Source: Myxococcota bacterium
Lineage (GTDB): Bacteria; Myxococcota_A; UBA9160; UBA6930
DNA length: 64,000 nucleotides
Reading direction: 5' to 3'
Assembly: GCA_965223415.1 (NCBI GenBank)
Contig: OZ245002.1
Span: forward strand, 3,904,001-3,968,000
A program made the position numbers and the translations under genes. Numbering within the stretch: the stretch's first letter is position 1; each line of letters opens with the position of its first letter. Below, in pieces: positions 3,482 to 41,360 of the stretch. The notes under the pieces are model-generated. The model made no database searches. It was not told the origin of the DNA and saw only the letters and a list, made by a program, of their open reading frames with translations.

Positions 3482-3970
3482 ATGGGCGTCGAAGTCAACG
3501 GGATCGCACATCTCCAGCTGACCGTGCGGGATCCGGACCGCTGCATCCCGTTCTGGGAGAAGCTGTGCCATTTCCTCGAGATGAAGACGCTCATCAAAGG
3601 CGACGACATCGTCTACTGCATCGGCAGCCGCACGGGCATCCTCGTGCGGGGCGCGCCGCCAGACAAGCGCGACGTCGCCTTCGACCAGGAGCGCCCGGGG
3701 CTCCACCACCTGTGCTTCCGGGCCCGTCAGCGCGAGGACGTGGACGCGATCTTCGCCTTCGCCCGGGACGATCTCGGCGCCACCGTCGTCCACGGGCCCG
3801 AGGAGGGCGGCTTCGCGCCGGGCTACTACTCCATCCTGCTCGAGGACCCGGACGGCATTCGCATCGAGGTGAACTTCGTTCCGGGCAAGGGGCACCTGGG
3901 GAAGGGCGGCCGGCTGGGCGAGGGCGGCGACGGCGTCGCCACCGAGTACGGCGAGGAGGGCCTCGGCTGA
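3482..3970 (+). CDS. VOC/glyoxalase family protein
   Basis: IAHLQLTV, GLHHLCF, EDPDGIRIEV; GGAGG RBS. Confidence 0.85.
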   Translation: MGVEVNGIAHLQLTVRDPDRCIPFWEKLCHFLEMKTLIKGDDIVYCIGSRTGILVRGAPPDKRDVAFDQERPGLHHLCFRARQREDVDAIFAFARDDLGATVVHGPEEGGFAPGYYSILLEDPDGIRIEVNFVPGKGHLGKGGRLGEGGDGVATEYGEEGLG

Positions 3971-38512: not shown

Positions 38513-39327
38513 CGGGCGTCCGCCAGCCAGGCGACCGCGGCTGCCACGTTGTCCCCCGCCCGCTTCTCGCGATGGGAGCCGCAGGCGCGCTCGCAGACCG
38601 CCCGGGCCAGGGCGGGGGCGCGCAGGTCGGCGGGCTCCCGCCCGGCGCCTTGCACCGCGGCGGCGACGGCCGCCGCCGGGTCCTTCACCCCGATTCCTTG
38701 CTCGCTCAGCCCGTCGGTCACGCACACCACCGCGCGAACGCCCGCCAGATCGTGACGCCCGAGCTGGCAGCGGGTGTGGAGGCTCTCCGGGGTCTCCTCG
38801 CGGGTGCCCAGGAAGGGGGTCGGTCGGCCGATCCGGGAGCCCAGCTCGTGCACGCTGCCCTCCGCTCCCACCACGAAGAGGTGGCTGTCGCCGACGCAGG
38901 CGTAGAAGAGATCCCCGGTCTCGGGGCGGACGAGGGTGGCGACCAGGGTGGTCTCCGAGTCCAGGTGCAGGCCCTGAGCCTTCTCGCGGAGGATGTCCAG
39001 GTTCGCGTCGCAGAGGGCGGCGAGGGCGTGACGACCCCAGCCGGTGAGGAAGCTCGCGTCGTCGCCGGTCCACTGGGGCGCCGGGTGGGCGAGCAGGTGC
39101 TCGACCGCCACCTCCGCCGCCTCGAAGCCCGAATGGCCGTCGGCCACGACCAACAGGGCGCCACCGGTCCCGCGGAAGAATCCGGCGGTGTCCTCGTTGG
39201 GATCGGTGTGCAGGTAGCTCTTGGGTGCGCCGCCCCGGGAGTTGGCGATGGCGACGGGTCCCTCGGCGACCACGTCCACCGCGCCGAGGTGGTCATGCTC
39301 CCGGCCACGAAGGACCGCGGACTTCAT
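38509..39327 (-). CDS. PP2C-family protein phosphatase
   Basis: NED, VADGHSG, VGDS, VTDGL and DNV motifs. Confidence 0.85.
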   Translation of the reverse strand: MKSAVLRGREHDHLGAVDVVAEGPVAIANSRGGAPKSYLHTDPNEDTAGFFRGTGGALLVVADGHSGFEAAEVAVEHLLAHPAPQWTGDDASFLTGWGRHALAALCDANLDILREKAQGLHLDSETTLVATLVRPETGDLFYACVGDSHLFVVGAEGSVHELGSRIGRPTPFLGTREETPESLHTRCQLGRHDLAGVRAVVCVTDGLSEQGIGVKDPAAAVAAAVQGAGREPADLRAPALARAVCERACGSHREKRAGDNVAAAVAWLADAR

Positions 39328-39413
39328 GGGTCGCAGGATATCGGCGCCGTCGCTGGCCTGCGAGTGATCCGGCGCGGTGTATCGGAGGAACCCCTTAGAT
39401 ACTCCCTTCGTCG

Positions 39414-40409
39414 TCAACCCTTCGTGGCGAAGAATTTCTCGCCAAGGAAGTCCTGGTCGTGGCGGAGCATGCCGTAGATGGCGTGGAGCAGCTTCCGCAT
39501 GACGGCGACGAGTGCTTGCATCTTGGTTTTGCCCTTGGAGAGCAGCTTCTCGTAGAAGGCCTTCACGTTCGGTTCCCAGCGTGCAGCGACCATCGCAGGA
39601 AGAAAGAGTGCGCGGCGAAGGTGGGCGTTGCCGGTCTTGCTGATGCGAGCTGGCTTGTGCACAGAGGTGCCCGATTGAAACTGTCGGGGGTCGAGGCCCG
39701 CATGCGCGACCCATTGCCGGGTCGTCATGTCCTTGGGCAAGGTGCCTAGCTCGGCGAGCAACTGGATGCCGGCTGCGTCGGCGATACCCTTGATCGATGT
39801 GATGTGGCCGAAGTCTCTGGCGAGCTCGGGGCTCTGCTCGATCACCTTCAACGCTTGCTTGCGCAGCCGATCGATTCGCCCCTCCAGGAGCTCGATCAGT
39901 TCGCGGATGTCTTGCTTCACGAACTCACTGAGCTCCTCGCTCTGGTCGTTGGCATGGAGCCGGTTCTTCTCCTGCGTCACGGTCTTGCTCAGAGCCTCCA
40001 CGCGGCGGGAGAGGGCCCGTACCTCCAGAATTCGGGGGTCCGGCGGAGTCCAGGCGGAAAACTCCATGCGCATTCCGAACTCGAGAATCGTTTCCGCATC
40101 GAGCGCATCCGTCTTGGAGCGTTGAAGCGATGCCTTGGCGAACGCGGCAATGGCCCGCGGGTTCGCCACCATCACCTGGGACGCCTTCGCACGGTGAAGC
40201 GCGAACGCGAGGTCGAGGCCGTACACCCCGGTCGATTCCAGGACGACGCGCGCCGTCGCATTCCCCTTCGTGGCCCACCGAATCAGCCTCTGGTGGCCCT
40301 TGGGATCGTTCGCAAAGACCAGCCCGCCCTCGCGAGTTCCGTTCCGGTCGATGGCGACGACGAGCTCCTTCGCCCCGACGTCCACGCCCACGTAATGACA
40401 CTTCTTCAA
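39414..40409 (-). CDS. IS110 recombinase/transposase
   Basis: DEDD RuvC-like VGVDVG, LESTG, KTDALDA; C-terminal GLDPRQFQSGTS with catalytic Ser; GGAGGAG RBS before TTG. Confidence 0.93.
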   Translation of the reverse strand: MKKCHYVGVDVGAKELVVAIDRNGTREGGLVFANDPKGHQRLIRWATKGNATARVVLESTGVYGLDLAFALHRAKASQVMVANPRAIAAFAKASLQRSKTDALDAETILEFGMRMEFSAWTPPDPRILEVRALSRRVEALSKTVTQEKNRLHANDQSEELSEFVKQDIRELIELLEGRIDRLRKQALKVIEQSPELARDFGHITSIKGIADAAGIQLLAELGTLPKDMTTRQWVAHAGLDPRQFQSGTSVHKPARISKTGNAHLRRALFLPAMVAARWEPNVKAFYEKLLSKGKTKMQALVAVMRKLLHAIYGMLRHDQDFLGEKFFATKG

Positions 40410-40459
40410 GGTCTCTCCTCCCCGTGATAAGCTGGGACCCGGGTCTCCCGACCCTGCAC

Positions 40460-40625
40460 ATTCACCTACGGACCTTGTAGACGCAGGCTCTCGGGCCTCG
40501 GATACTCCACGGCATGGGTGACGAGGGCGGGAGGCCCATCTAACGGACAAGCTCTCTGGCTTCAGGCAGCGACGGCCTTTCCCGGGAACCCATCTCGGAG
40601 TCTCACTCAGGCCCGAAGAGCCTGC
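40460..40625 (-). ncRNA. Predicted bridge RNA (5' hairpin, target-binding loop, donor-binding loop)
   Basis: Two internal loops, each with an inner 4-bp hairpin; guide segments match the donor and target. Boundaries approximate. Confidence 0.8.
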
Positions 40626-40727
40626 TCAGAGGTACAAGAGCAGCGCGTGCCGGCCCGGATTATCCTGCCCCCCTGATCCGCATGGACGCGGATCCGCCTC
40701 AGCCGAACGCAAGGGGATGCTTCGCCC

Positions 40728-41360
40728 ATGGACTGGGTCCGGCCGGTCTGCCACGAGCTCGGGAACCTGCTGGCAGGTGTCCAGCTCTCGGGGCACTTCC
40801 TGGGCGGCGAGCTCTCCGATCGCGATCGCCGGCAGGTGGCCCGGGACGTCCAGCTCCTGAGTGCCCAGGCCGGCGCATGGGTCGCGCTGATCCGTCCGCT
40901 CCAGCTGCGCAAACCGCCGCTCTCCCGGGTGGCACCGGCCGAGATCCTGGCCGCCCTGCGCCGGAGCGTCGATGAGCTCTTGTGGAAGCCCGACCAGCTC
41001 AAGGTGTCGAAGGGCACGCGGCAGTCGGACGTCCGGGTCGACTCGGACGCGGTCCACCATCTGCTGGCGCTCCTCGTGAGCGCCGCCCTCGCCGACGGGG
41101 GCGCGACCTCCCAGCTCCGCCTGGGCACCCGCCAGCAGTCGCGGCACCTGGTGCTGGCGCTGACCGATACGGGCCCGGTCCTGCCCAAGCCCACGGCGGT
41201 GCCCGCGGCCCGCGGGCGGGAGCTGGCGCTCCAGGTGGGCGACGCGATCCTGCGGGCCGGCGGCGGAAGGCTCGCTCTCGTGTCGCGCCGCGTGGGCAAT
41301 CGCATCGAGCTCTACCTGCCCTGGGCGCCTCGCCGGGCTCGGGCGGCGCGGCGCGGCTAG
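40728..41360 (+). CDS. Sensorless histidine kinase-like protein (degenerate ATPase domain)
   Basis: VCHELGN H-box at residue 9; degenerate G boxes (DTGPVLP, GRELAL). Confidence 0.6.
   Translation: MDWVRPVCHELGNLLAGVQLSGHFLGGELSDRDRRQVARDVQLLSAQAGAWVALIRPLQLRKPPLSRVAPAEILAALRRSVDELLWKPDQLKVSKGTRQSDVRVDSDAVHHLLALLVSAALADGGATSQLRLGTRQQSRHLVLALTDTGPVLPKPTAVPAARGRELALQVGDAILRAGGGRLALVSRRVGNRIELYLPWAPRRARAARRG

Follow-up and report, generated by a model that had tools for sequence, protein, structure and literature searches.

An IS110-group element with a bridge recombinase and a predicted bridge RNA in a Myxococcota genome

Results

A complete IS110-group element in an intergenic gap

The window, by which we mean the whole 64-kb stretch of DNA analysed here, carries a single IS110-group element on its minus strand. 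An earlier note on this DNA had described the element as complete, and every motif was found at the coordinates it gave. The element and its main parts are as follows.

39397..40638, minus strand: whole IS110-group element, 1242 bp with both CT cores
40637..40638, minus strand: left core dinucleotide CT, its position matched in relatives
39397..39398, minus strand: right core dinucleotide CT, preceded by GAGTAT as part of a ...GAGTAT-CT end conserved among relatives
39414..40409, minus strand: recombinase gene, TTG start at 40409, 331 aa, stop TGA at 39416-39414

Read along the minus strand, the left junction is ...CGCTGCT-CT-TGTACC and the right junction is ...GGAGTAT-CT-AAGGGG, with termini CTTGTAC... 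at the left and ...GGAGTATCT at the right. Both junctions agree with the rejoined ends GGAGTAT-CT-TGTAC proposed earlier. The non-coding left end (LE) spans 229 nt (40638-40410), and the right end (RE) after the stop codon spans 16 nt, core counted in. A long LE, a short RE and a CT at both junctions correspond to the layout of the IS110 group, for which PMC11208160 describes a repeated core and no long terminal inverted repeats. The ends, which the earlier note had proposed to compare with those of other copies, are the same as in relatives: (C/A)TTGTA... at LE and ...GAG(T/A)ATCT at RE. Relatives range from 1235 to 1420 bp, and the closest three (L002, L003, L024) measure 1241-1246 bp. One sub-lineage combines a target core AT with a donor core CT.

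The GC content of the element is 62.7%, against 71.2% for the window, and by this composition the element is foreign. It occupies a gap of 160 bp that has a PP2C phosphatase gene on one side and a divergent ORF on the other, and it may disturb the promoters of both. No second copy was found in the 64-kb window, where a 21-mer from the left end occurs once and the RNA model described below matches once.

The recombinase carries every catalytic residue of IS621

The recombinase contains the Pfam domains PF01548 (DEDD_Tnp_IS110; 3.8e-26) and PF02371 (Transposase_20; 1.5e-20), and it scores 218 bits against the NCBIfam model NF033542 ('IS110 family RNA-guided transposase'), which has a cut-off of 140. 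With phmmer, residues 3-320 align with the ISCro4 transposase (PDB 9t56; E 4.2e-49) and with the IS621 chain 8wt6 (E 2e-46). Its length of 331 aa compares with 330-331 aa in relatives.

Residues D10, E58, D101, D104, S246, and G247 align with D11, E60, D102, D105, S241, and G242 of IS621, the residues reported in PMC11208158; numbering in the IS621 PDB chain runs 2 ahead of these published numbers. Among 26 homologues, E58, D101, D104, S246, and G247 are invariant and D10 is nearly so. S257, in the motif RISKTG, was considered as the catalytic serine and rejected, as the IS621 alignment points to S246. The sequence therefore predicts a full-length protein with a DEDD (RuvC-like) domain and a Tnp domain in which every IS621 catalytic residue is present, in agreement with the earlier reading of an intact DEDD set and catalytic serine.

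Covariation among relatives defines a structured left-end RNA

The non-coding left end contains the following RNA features.

40608..40624, minus strand: 5' stem-loop CAGGC-TCTTCGG-GCCTG, predicted from folding (5'-segment MFE -15.5 kcal/mol)
40436..40592, minus strand: bridge RNA core, comprising closing helix, target-binding module and donor-binding module, from covariance model R1
40581..40586, minus strand: closing helix P1, 5' strand CCCGGG, pairing with 40438-40443
40438..40443, minus strand: closing helix P1, 3' strand, from covariation
40549..40562, minus strand: target-loop capping hairpin AAGC-CAGAGA-GCTT, from covariation
40524..40531, minus strand: long-range helix around the donor module, 5' strand CCCGCCCT, pairing with 40447-40455
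40447..40455, minus strand: long-range helix, 3' strand AGGGTCGGG with one bulged T, from covariation
40485..40498, minus strand: donor-loop capping hairpin AGGC-CCGAGA-GCCT, from covariation

The left-end RNA region is conserved at 70 of the 76 loci that have at least 200 nt upstream. RNAalifold recovered two modules, each of stem, internal loop and hairpin, with compensatory changes at 15 of 20 pairs. For a structure of 35 pairs, pairing amounts to 87.3% in the MAFFT alignment and to no more than 54.6% once the structure is slid along it; in the model-fitted alignment pairing reaches 90.1%, with compensatory changes at 31 of the 35 pairs. In the same alignment, 73.9% of the cells of P1 (helix 1) are paired and five of its six pairs have changed on both sides. 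The long-range helix (helix 4) is 93.9% paired, with six of eight pairs changed on both sides. Among 60 distinct rows, the second pair of the target-loop capping hairpin is A-U in 30 and G-C in 29. The 5' stem-loop is common to L002 and L024, and farther relatives usually appear to fold a hairpin of another sequence here.

Covariance model R1 was built from 56 relatives with the window left out. Searched against the 64-kb window, it gave a single match, 40436-40592 on the minus strand (163.3 bits, E 3e-31), which covers positions 1-157 of 157 with no non-standard pair and ranks third by score among 77 R1 matches. Six loci (L025, L049, L063-L065, L073) had been dropped before alignment A2 was built, being poorly aligned or having no RNA; L025, L049 and L063-65 were picked up afterwards by the model at 37-75 bits. 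The model found no match at L007, L058, L070 and L073; in two of them, L007 and L058, the sequence breaks off at the gene's 5' end. Compared with R1, the IS621 DBL matches positions 66-141 only (18.2 bits, E 0.0027), and is homologous to the donor module.

Folded as a single sequence, the left end does not stand out from shuffled versions (z = -1.12; 29 of 200 reach a fold as good), so the case for its structure rests on the relatives. A search of 39000-41000 against Rfam 15 at E up to 10 returned two chance miRNA matches and nothing else, and eight related loci gave nothing at E up to 0.1; the bridge-RNA call is thus not confirmed by any curated model. Of the covariance scoring that the earlier note had suggested, the part based on relatives succeeded and the part based on Rfam 15 gave no bridge-RNA match.

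We preferred the two long-range helices to a local pairing of GGG (40583-40581) with CCC (40531-40529) that would extend the target-loop stem, since the helices comprise more pairs and show covariation beyond the bases that both folds use. The RNA could switch between the two folds. On the comparative evidence the left end is a predicted bridge RNA with a 5' hairpin and target-binding and donor-binding internal loops. The hairpin and both loops, with their capping hairpins, lie where they had been placed before, and the R1 match together with the covariation supports the earlier proposal of a bispecific bridge RNA.

The donor loop matches both ends of the element

The donor loop and the two handshake guides are assigned as follows.

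40501..40508, minus strand: left donor guide GGAGTATC, 7/7 to the right end GGAGTAT
40474..40480, minus strand: right donor guide CTACAAG, pairing with left-end CTTGTA
40538..40539, minus strand: target-loop handshake guide AT, complementary to donor positions 6-7 (AT)
40472..40473, minus strand: donor-loop handshake guide GT, pairing with the last two bases (GC) of the guide-specified left target

On the left-end side, TACAAG (40479-40474) pairs with CTTGTA at 6 of 6 positions, core included. Across the relatives, 5-7 of the 7 positions of the donor guide agree with the right end in every case, and position 5 of the left donor guide covaries with the right end at 58 of 58 loci (T/T in 41, A/A in 17). 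A role for handshake guides is described for IS621 in PMC11208158. Here, 35 of 46 distinct classes pair the first base of the donor-loop handshake with position 7 of the guide; shuffles gave a mean of 25.1, and 1 in 20,000 was as high as 35.

Target guides follow the flanks across the family, with a one-base offset in the window

The target loop and the base that separates it from register with its site are listed below.

40564..40572, minus strand: left target guide TCGCTGC plus core guide CT (TCGCTGCCT), register fixed by relatives
40540..40547, minus strand: right target guide TCCGTT plus core guide AG, pairing with top strand CT-AACGGA
40639..40639, minus strand: additional T that separates the core from the guide-matching flank CGCTGC (40645-40640) and places the left arm out of register

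The register of the left guide follows from relatives such as L006 and L034, each matching at 7 of 7 positions. Across the family, left guides match their own left flanks at 4.76 of 7 positions, compared with 2.31 for the flanks of other elements; right guides match their own right flanks at 3.96 of 5, compared with 1.43. In permutation tests none of 20,000 was as high as observed on either side. The window was excluded from these tests, which used 38 distinct guide classes on the left and 24 on the right. Guide extraction was one column off in L032, L037, L043, L066 and L042, which have longer loops, and these rows were kept in the counts, so the observed means are lowered. Covariation of the guides with target and donor among homologues, which the earlier note had named as a check, is therefore present.

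At the window's own site the agreement is partial. The left flank CGCTGCT matches the guide TCGCTGC at 0 of 7 positions in register and at 6 of 6 when read one base outward, and the right arm matches at 4 of 5 (AACGG expected, AAGGG found). The site reads GCGCTGC-T-CT-AAGGGG, with one extra base and one mismatch. Among 65 insertions scanned, the window alone has a real one-base offset; L066, an apparent second case, proved to be an artefact of reading its longer loop. An in-register score of 0/7 alongside 6/6 when shifted indicates that the window copy lies at a pseudo-site. The empty target CGCTGCT-CT-AAGGG given in the earlier note is formally right, but its left flank is out of register with loop 1, whose right side the note had read as CCGTTAG at 40546-40540 of the minus strand.

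Within the window, both the reconstructed empty site and the guide-predicted target have matches elsewhere at 3 mismatches only (2 found against 3.3 expected, and 6 found against 8.4 expected, respectively).

Relatives probably insert at an attC-like repeat

A single base separates the target loop of the window element from the loop of L001, L024, L011, L015, L071 and L072. Since this loop is common to relatives and its usual target is an attC-like repeat, the data do not bear out the earlier suggestion of a target specificity peculiar to the element.

From the relatives, the target loop would be aimed at one end of arrayed attC-like repeats, GCYGC-CT-AACGGA, which on the other strand contains the GTTAGGC core-site box. 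Integron attC sites form an imperfect palindrome, bounded by RYYYAAC and GTTRRRY boxes and interrupted by a spacer that stays unpaired and by extrahelical bases, and they lie in arrays after short ORFs (PMC5027507). In the relatives, boxes and palindrome were found in 14 of the 17 empty sites and in 11 of the 18 occupied ones. In L005 such sites are arrayed, with six in 6 kb, and the ORF layout around the repeats fits cassettes. The window's own site has no distal GTTRRRY box, no palindrome and no array features. Judged by these motifs, the lineage usually targets a conserved attC-like repeat, which is not present at the window site.

A candidate promoter across the circle junction

Two hexamers would form a promoter once the ends of the element are joined.

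40629..40634, minus strand: candidate -10 hexamer TACCTC, of a promoter across the circle junction
39412..39417, minus strand: candidate -35 hexamer TTGACG, which lies in the right end and overlaps the stop codon

With the ends joined, TTGACG and TACCTC are 17 nt apart. The -35 hexamer matches TTGACA at 5 or more of 6 positions in 44 of 55 relatives. The -10 hexamer reaches at least 4 of 6 in 41 of 55 (TATATC, TATCTT and similar), but only 2 of 6 in the window, L002, L003 and L024. A sigma-70 scan of the integrated copy found no promoter-like site. By sequence, putative junction-promoter hexamers are conserved across relatives, and the window's -10 candidate is poor.

Discussion

We consider it very probable that the locus holds a single structurally intact IS110-group copy, consisting of a bridge recombinase and its own bridge RNA, of an ordinary and well-described kind. 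By analogy with the IS621 mechanism (Durrant 2024, PMC11208160; Hiraizumi 2024, PMC11208158), the element would excise as a circle joining GGAGTAT-CT-TGTAC, and this junction would bring the RE -35 (TTGACG) to 17 nt from the LE -10 and drive the RNA. The RNA would bridge the donor junction and a target xCGCTGC-CT-AACGGA, and a recombinase tetramer would exchange strands at the CT core via Ser246. Programmability and activity of the window element are predictions from IS621.

The window site is most likely a look-alike of the usual target, entered by off-target insertion or by insertion followed by a 1-nt gain. If the T was already there, which would make this a bulge-tolerant or half-match insertion, the empty site would read ...CGCTGCTCTAAGGGG... 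(CGCTGCTCTAAGG); if it was gained later, the empty site would read ...CGCTGCCTAAGGGG... (CGCTGCCTAAGG).

The second route, in which the element inserted on target into CGCTGC-CT-AAGGG and the T arose at the junction afterwards with no off-target event at all, is possible but less likely than not. The 6/6 match one base out, the 4/5 right arm and the lack of any real offset in the other 64 insertions speak for it; yet even without the T the site is not attC-like, as the distal box and palindrome are missing.

It is rather unlikely that the copy is a stranded relic, intact in sequence but deprived of mobility by its out-of-register left junction and weak junction promoter. The extra T at 40639 with its 0/7 left flank, the 2/6 score of TACCTC, the lone copy in 64 kb and the negative promoter scan of the integrated copy would all fit, and under the excision model of PMC13626964 a mismatch between left flank and guide could hamper excision. 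Against this, the ORF is complete and retains every catalytic residue, and the RNA has no broken pair and a near-top R1 rank. TACCTC also occurs in L002, L003 and L024 from other genomes, so the hexamer belongs to a lineage that spread. In addition, IS621 excision is reported in a preprint (10.64898/2026.08.31.748434) to need donor-arm recognition only.

That the left end is instead a 5' leader controlling transposase translation or stability, with incidental flank matches, is highly improbable: the P1 3' strand does end about 15 nt upstream of a GGAGG ribosome-binding site, so the fold could affect translation too, but the loops as well as the stems follow each element's own flanks and ends, the flank matches exceeding all 20,000 permutations, the T/A covariation holds at every locus scored, and the donor module is detectably homologous to the IS621 DBL.

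Returning to the intact bridge-recombinase copy, a broader proposal would place it in an IS110-group lineage of Myxococcota, Gemmatimonadota and related MAGs whose three-way-junction bridge RNA is tuned to the attC core-site end, with the window copy as a bulge-tolerant or half-match insertion outside an integron. We put this forward tentatively, as possible rather than probable.

For the window itself the finding matters little, adding one more IS110 element. The family, in turn, provides some 40 naturally varied target loops whose insertion sites are known. Its long right guide, extra closing helix, AT/CT core sub-lineage and attC-like target amount to natural experiments that bear on bridge-recombinase engineering, namely on fidelity, core flexibility and off-target rules.

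Comparison with known systems

The best solved relative of the recombinase is the ISCro4 transposase, a distant orthologue. With IS621, from E. coli, the window element shares the IS110 group, the two protein domains and the catalytic residues, a left-end RNA in which a 5' stem-loop precedes a target loop that varies and a donor loop that is conserved, the CT core, and the handshake guides AT and GT. It also shares the placement of a -35 in RE and a -10 in LE, 17 nt apart with the ends joined, a layout described for IS621 in PMC11208160. The IS621 donor ACAGTAT-CT-TGTAT, which the earlier note had cited as similar and which we confirmed on an annotated IS621 copy, is nearly identical to the window's GGAGTAT-CT-TGTAC. 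Bridge RNAs were predicted in 85.7% of IS110-group elements by Durrant et al. (PMC11208160).

The two systems differ in several respects. The recombinases share only 36% protein identity (tblastn). The right target guide extends 6 nt beyond the core in the window and 2 beyond the core in IS621 (RTG G77-G80, as given in PMC11208158). Unlike IS621, the window RNA has two extra helices, the closing P1 and the long helix around the donor module, which yield a three-way junction and an extension of about 30 nt past the donor module; in IS621 the start codon marks the end of the donor module. The window's lineage has an attC-like repeat as its usual target, and IS621 an E. coli REP.

Natural targets that are repeats with a stem-loop beside the guide-matched sequence have been described for ISPpu10, an IS110 element of Pseudomonas putida (preprint 10.64898/2026.03.19.712850); its host, target and RNA all differ from those of the window element.

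As described in PMC11187229, the IS1111-attC group (ISKpn4, ISPst6; seekRNA) belongs to the DEDD transposase family and makes an RNA-guided choice of one attC end; its non-coding region follows the gene, and it has inverted repeats that are subterminal and 7-17 bp long. Judged on layout, the window element falls outside this group, having an RE of 16 nt and its RNA upstream of the gene. As far as our limited literature search reached, attC-end targeting has so far appeared in print only for these seekRNA elements; if the relatives of the window element do target attC, theirs would be a solution independent of the IS1111 group.

Boundaries and recombinase of the element

The IS110-group insertion sequence at 39397-40638 on the minus strand has a GC content of 62.7%, lower than the 71.2% of the window and the 71-72% of the 5-kb stretches flanking the element, and is therefore a foreign insert. 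The element is 1242 bp long and present in one copy in the 64-kb window. It splits an intergenic gap of ~160 bp between a PP2C-family phosphatase gene and a divergent ORF, for which a Pfam search gave no match; an H-box-like HELGNLL motif can be read in the translation of this ORF.

Features of the element and its surroundings (window positions)
Left junction, minus strand: flank ...GCACGCGCTGCT + CT + TGTACCTCTGAGCAGG...
Right junction, 1.2 kb further, minus strand: ...GACGAAGGGAGTAT + CT + AAGGGGTTCC
TTG at 40409 to TGA at 39416-39414, minus strand: recombinase ORF, 331 aa, with a GGAGG ribosome-binding site in front
39327-38509, minus strand: PP2C-family phosphatase gene (PF13672 at 9e-14)
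40728-41360, divergent from the phosphatase gene: ORF of 210 aa
40700-40665, minus strand: inverted repeat GGCGGATCCGCG...CATGCGGATCAGG in the intergenic left flank, ~30-60 nt upstream of the insertion site

A protein search returned 5487 proteins at E ≤1e-3 among 8000 candidates scored; the best non-self protein among these candidates was 87% identical, and most matches lay on 1-3-kb metagenome contigs. A contig scan with a 26-protein alignment yielded 79 related loci (numbered from L001, 36-83% identity) in MAGs labelled Gemmatimonadota, Myxococcota or Deltaproteobacteria, Acidobacteriota and others, all from genomes other than that of the window. Alignment of the upstream and downstream regions of these relatives extended to conserved sequences at the left end, [C/A]TTGTA(T/C)..., and at the right end, ...GAG(T/A)AT-CT, giving element sizes of 1235-1420 bp (1241-1246 bp in the closest, L002, L003, and L024). 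In multi-copy genomes, identity is lost no more than a few bases from these ends, except where the flanks are conserved repeats. The conserved ends and the breakdown of identity there show that the boundaries drawn in the earlier note are right, and every motif it listed is in place on the minus strand. Among the relatives, L026 carries two same-orientation copies of one element (1818-1994 and 3574-3750, 1756 bp apart), which is 1350 bp long in L027-L029. In L014, two occurrences of the left-end start CTTGTATCTTCT lie 40 nt apart, some 198 and 238 nt 5' of the RNA core, and in L013 the flank picked by the left-end rule matches the guide at 1/7; both of these copies may have a duplicated or rearranged left end.

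The recombinase matches the Pfam families DEDD_Tnp_IS110 (3.8e-26) and Transposase_20 (1.5e-20), as well as NCBIfam NF033542, "IS110 family RNA-guided transposase" (score 218 bits, cut-off 140). Over residues 3-320 it matches two transposases of solved structure, those of ISCro4 (9t56, E 4.2e-49) and IS621 (8wt6, E 2e-46). The IS621 catalytic residues D11, E60, D102, D105, and S241, together with G242, conserved beside the serine (Hiraizumi et al., PMC11208158; the PDB chain numbering is 2 higher), align to D10, E58, D101, D104, S246, and G247. Across 26 homologues (64-100% identity), E58, D101, D104, S246, and G247 are invariant and D10 nearly so, consistent with the intact DEDD residues and catalytic serine reported previously. 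The protein covers relatives of 330-331 aa end to end, so the recombinase gene is intact.

Structure of the bridge RNA

Of the 76 loci with 200 nt or more of upstream sequence, 70 conserve the left-end region. L025, L049, L063-65, and L073 were set aside before RNA alignment, and RNAalifold on 57 distinct sequences gave two modules, each built from a lower stem, internal loop, and capping hairpin (20 pairs, 15 with compensatory changes). Two long-range helices were added by eye.

Bridge RNA features (window positions, all minus strand)
40624-40608: 5' hairpin
40572-40564: loop 1, left strand, TCGCTGCCT
40546-40540: loop 1, right strand, CCGTTAG
40508-40501: loop 2, left strand, GGAGTATC
40479-40474: loop 2, right strand, TACAAG
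40586-40581 with 40443-40438: long-range helix P1, 5' strand CCCGGG
40531-40524 with 40455-40447: second long-range helix, CCCGCCCT with AGGGTCGGG, enclosing the donor module

On a MAFFT alignment, the 35-pair structure was 87.3% paired, compared with 20-55% when partners were slid, and 24 of the 35 pairs showed changes on both sides. The long-range helices covary, join the target and donor modules as a three-way junction, and carry the RNA to ~15 nt from the ribosome-binding site. The 5' hairpin is common to the element and its closest relatives, and remoter ones seem usually to fold some hairpin there.

A covariance model of the RNA core, R1 (positions 1-157), was built from 56 relatives with the window left out. 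It found a single, full-length match in the window, at 40436-40592(-) (163.3 bits, E 3e-31), and 77 matches in the window and the 79 loci together. In the model-fitted alignment, which leans towards the model, 90.1% of cells were paired and 31 of the 35 pairs had changed on both sides. This independent match and the covarying stems bear out the bridge RNA that the earlier note had placed in the left end. A single-sequence fold of the window's RNA was no better than shuffles (z = -1.12), and an Rfam search of the element region returned nothing for a bridge RNA.

Among relatives, guides match flanks and ends

The two strands of loop 1 are the left and right target guides and those of loop 2 the donor guides, around a CT core. 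Their register was set from relatives such as L006, where loop and flank both read GATGCCGC-AT. The left target guide (7 nt before the core) matched its own left flank at 4.76/7, against 2.31 for the flanks of others (38 distinct classes), and the right guide (5 nt after the core) its own right flank at 3.96/5, against 1.43 (24 classes); these means are lowered by longer-loop rows (L032, L037, L043, L066, and L042) that were mis-extracted by a column and retained. In permutation tests excluding the window, 0 of 20000 reached the observed mean on either side. The donor loop fits the ends everywhere, with 5-7/7 for the left donor guide and at least CT+TGT for the right. At the sole variable donor position, 41 loci have GAGTAT in both loop and end and 17 have GAGAAT in both, with no discordant locus. 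Differing ends and non-covarying guides had been named beforehand as evidence against the interpretation; the ends agree and the guides covary.

The dinucleotide after each 3' guide behaves like the handshake guides of IS621 described in PMC11208158. The AT after the right target guide is complementary to the donor AT. In 35 of 46 classes, the base directly following the right donor guide pairs with the final base of the left target guide; shuffles gave a mean of 25.1, and 1 of 20000 was as high.

The usual target is an attC-like repeat

The window's element shares its right guide with L001, L024, L011, L015, L071, and L072, and its target loop is one base off theirs. A right flank that starts with AACG and continues into conserved sequence is present in 19 loci. 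Uninterrupted copies of the target sequence lie nearby (L001:2346, L003:4509, L007:2905, L010:4463, L018:4399, L069:497, and L069:5712), each the start of a 130-180-nt imperfect palindrome that runs from a GCCTAAC-type to a GTTAGGC-type box and contains a short unpaired spacer and single-base bulges. By the criterion applied, the distal inverted box is found at 14 of 17 empty sites (including a one-mismatch match in L003, probably the wrong box) and, where flanks were long enough, at 11 of 18 occupied sites.

Target repeats in three related loci (locus positions)
L005: 177, 1005, 1597, 4172, 4645, 5244
L006: 4022, 4843, 5695
L012: 1628

The six copies in L005 lie within 6 kb in one orientation with short ORFs between them; opposite-strand ORFs begin 11-22 nt from four repeats, and the distal box coincides with the end of the preceding ORF. 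Integron attC sites combine RYYYAAC and GTTRRRY boxes with an unpaired central spacer and extrahelical bases (PMC5027507). In cassette-strand orientation, the element has inserted within the GTT/AGGC box. Judged by these sequence features, the usual target repeat of the lineage is likely, but not proven, to be an integron attC site. Targeting of attC has been published for the IS1111-group elements ISKpn4 and ISPst6, with a downstream seekRNA (PMC11187229); a limited search of the literature found attC and bridge RNA together only in the reference list of Durrant et al., leaving novelty unproven.

No attC-like features were found at the window's own site. The target loop is thus a lineage trait aimed at a repeat absent from the insertion site and from the 64 kb. 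Since the loop is near-identical in relatives and the repeat is absent here, the earlier description of an element with its own target specificity does not fit.

In a sub-lineage (L004, L005, L006, and L012), the left target guide has AT, while the donor core and right target guide have CT. The empty sites of L005, L006, and L012 have a repeat core of AT (GCCGC-AT-AACGG), and all four loci have AT at the left junction and CT at the right. This sub-lineage is a naturally occurring example of target and donor cores that differ. L022 and L077 combine an AT guide with a CT left junction.

In other lineages (L051, L052, L054, L056, L075, L047, L074, L039, and L046), insertions directly follow the 3' side of GC-rich hairpins (such as CGCAGGGC...GCCCTGCG/CT), and the left guide matches the 3' arm. 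Such flanks resemble REP elements or terminators.

The insertion site in the window

The unusual point of the window copy itself is a one-base misfit at its left junction. In the relatives' register, the left target guide TCGCTGC-CT matches the left flank CGCTGCT-CT at 0/7; of the 66 insertions whose left flank could be read, no other scores zero. Shifting the reading of the flank by one base away from the core gives 6/6 against the guide, and among 65 insertions scanned a real one-base offset occurs only here; an offset also flagged in L066 is an extraction artefact. The right arm, AAGGG, matches the guide AACGG at 4/5, so the site can be written GCGCTGC-[T]-CT-AAGGGG. It reads as a near-copy of the guide-specified target with an extra T at 40639 and one mismatch. 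The guide-predicted 14-mer occurs in the window only at 3 mismatches (6 found, 8.4 expected), with no better site.

These data fit a recombinase that accepted the site with the right arm and core paired properly and the left arm displaced; IS621 can insert at "half-match" sites paired across the core and only one arm, according to a preprint (10.64898/2026.08.31.748434). They also fit a T gained at the junction after a cleaner insertion.

Comparison with IS621

The finding of an intact IS110-group element whose bridge RNA can be read is real, and its main interpretation was correct; by analogy with IS621, we infer that the element may be active, expressed, and programmable. What exceeds the ordinary lies mostly in the relatives, namely the attC-like target, the extra helices, and the AT target core with a CT donor core.

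For comparison, we used the annotated IS621 of an E. coli plasmid (designated L080). Its left end, CT-TGTAT, and right end, ACAGTAT-CT, agree with the IS621 donor given in the earlier note, and its loops are ATCGGGC-CT / GTAG-AT and ACAGTATC / GCAAG-GT. The two recombinases share 36% identity. The right target guide is longer in the window's element than in IS621, and the two extra long-range helices of the window's family were not detected in the L080 left end, where the donor module ends at the start codon. R1 finds only the donor module in IS621 (positions 66-141, 18.2 bits, E 0.0027) and matches a Salinibacter ruber plasmid copy at full length (58.6 bits).

A junction promoter reconstituted on excision has been described by Durrant et al. 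(PMC11208160). In the joined ends of L080, TTGCAG from the right end stands 17 nt from TATTAT of the left end. The window's family shares this layout across its joined ends: 44 of 55 loci carry a candidate -35-like hexamer (at least 5/6) and 41 of 55 a -10-like one (at least 4/6); the candidate hexamers in the window are TTGACG and TACCTC.
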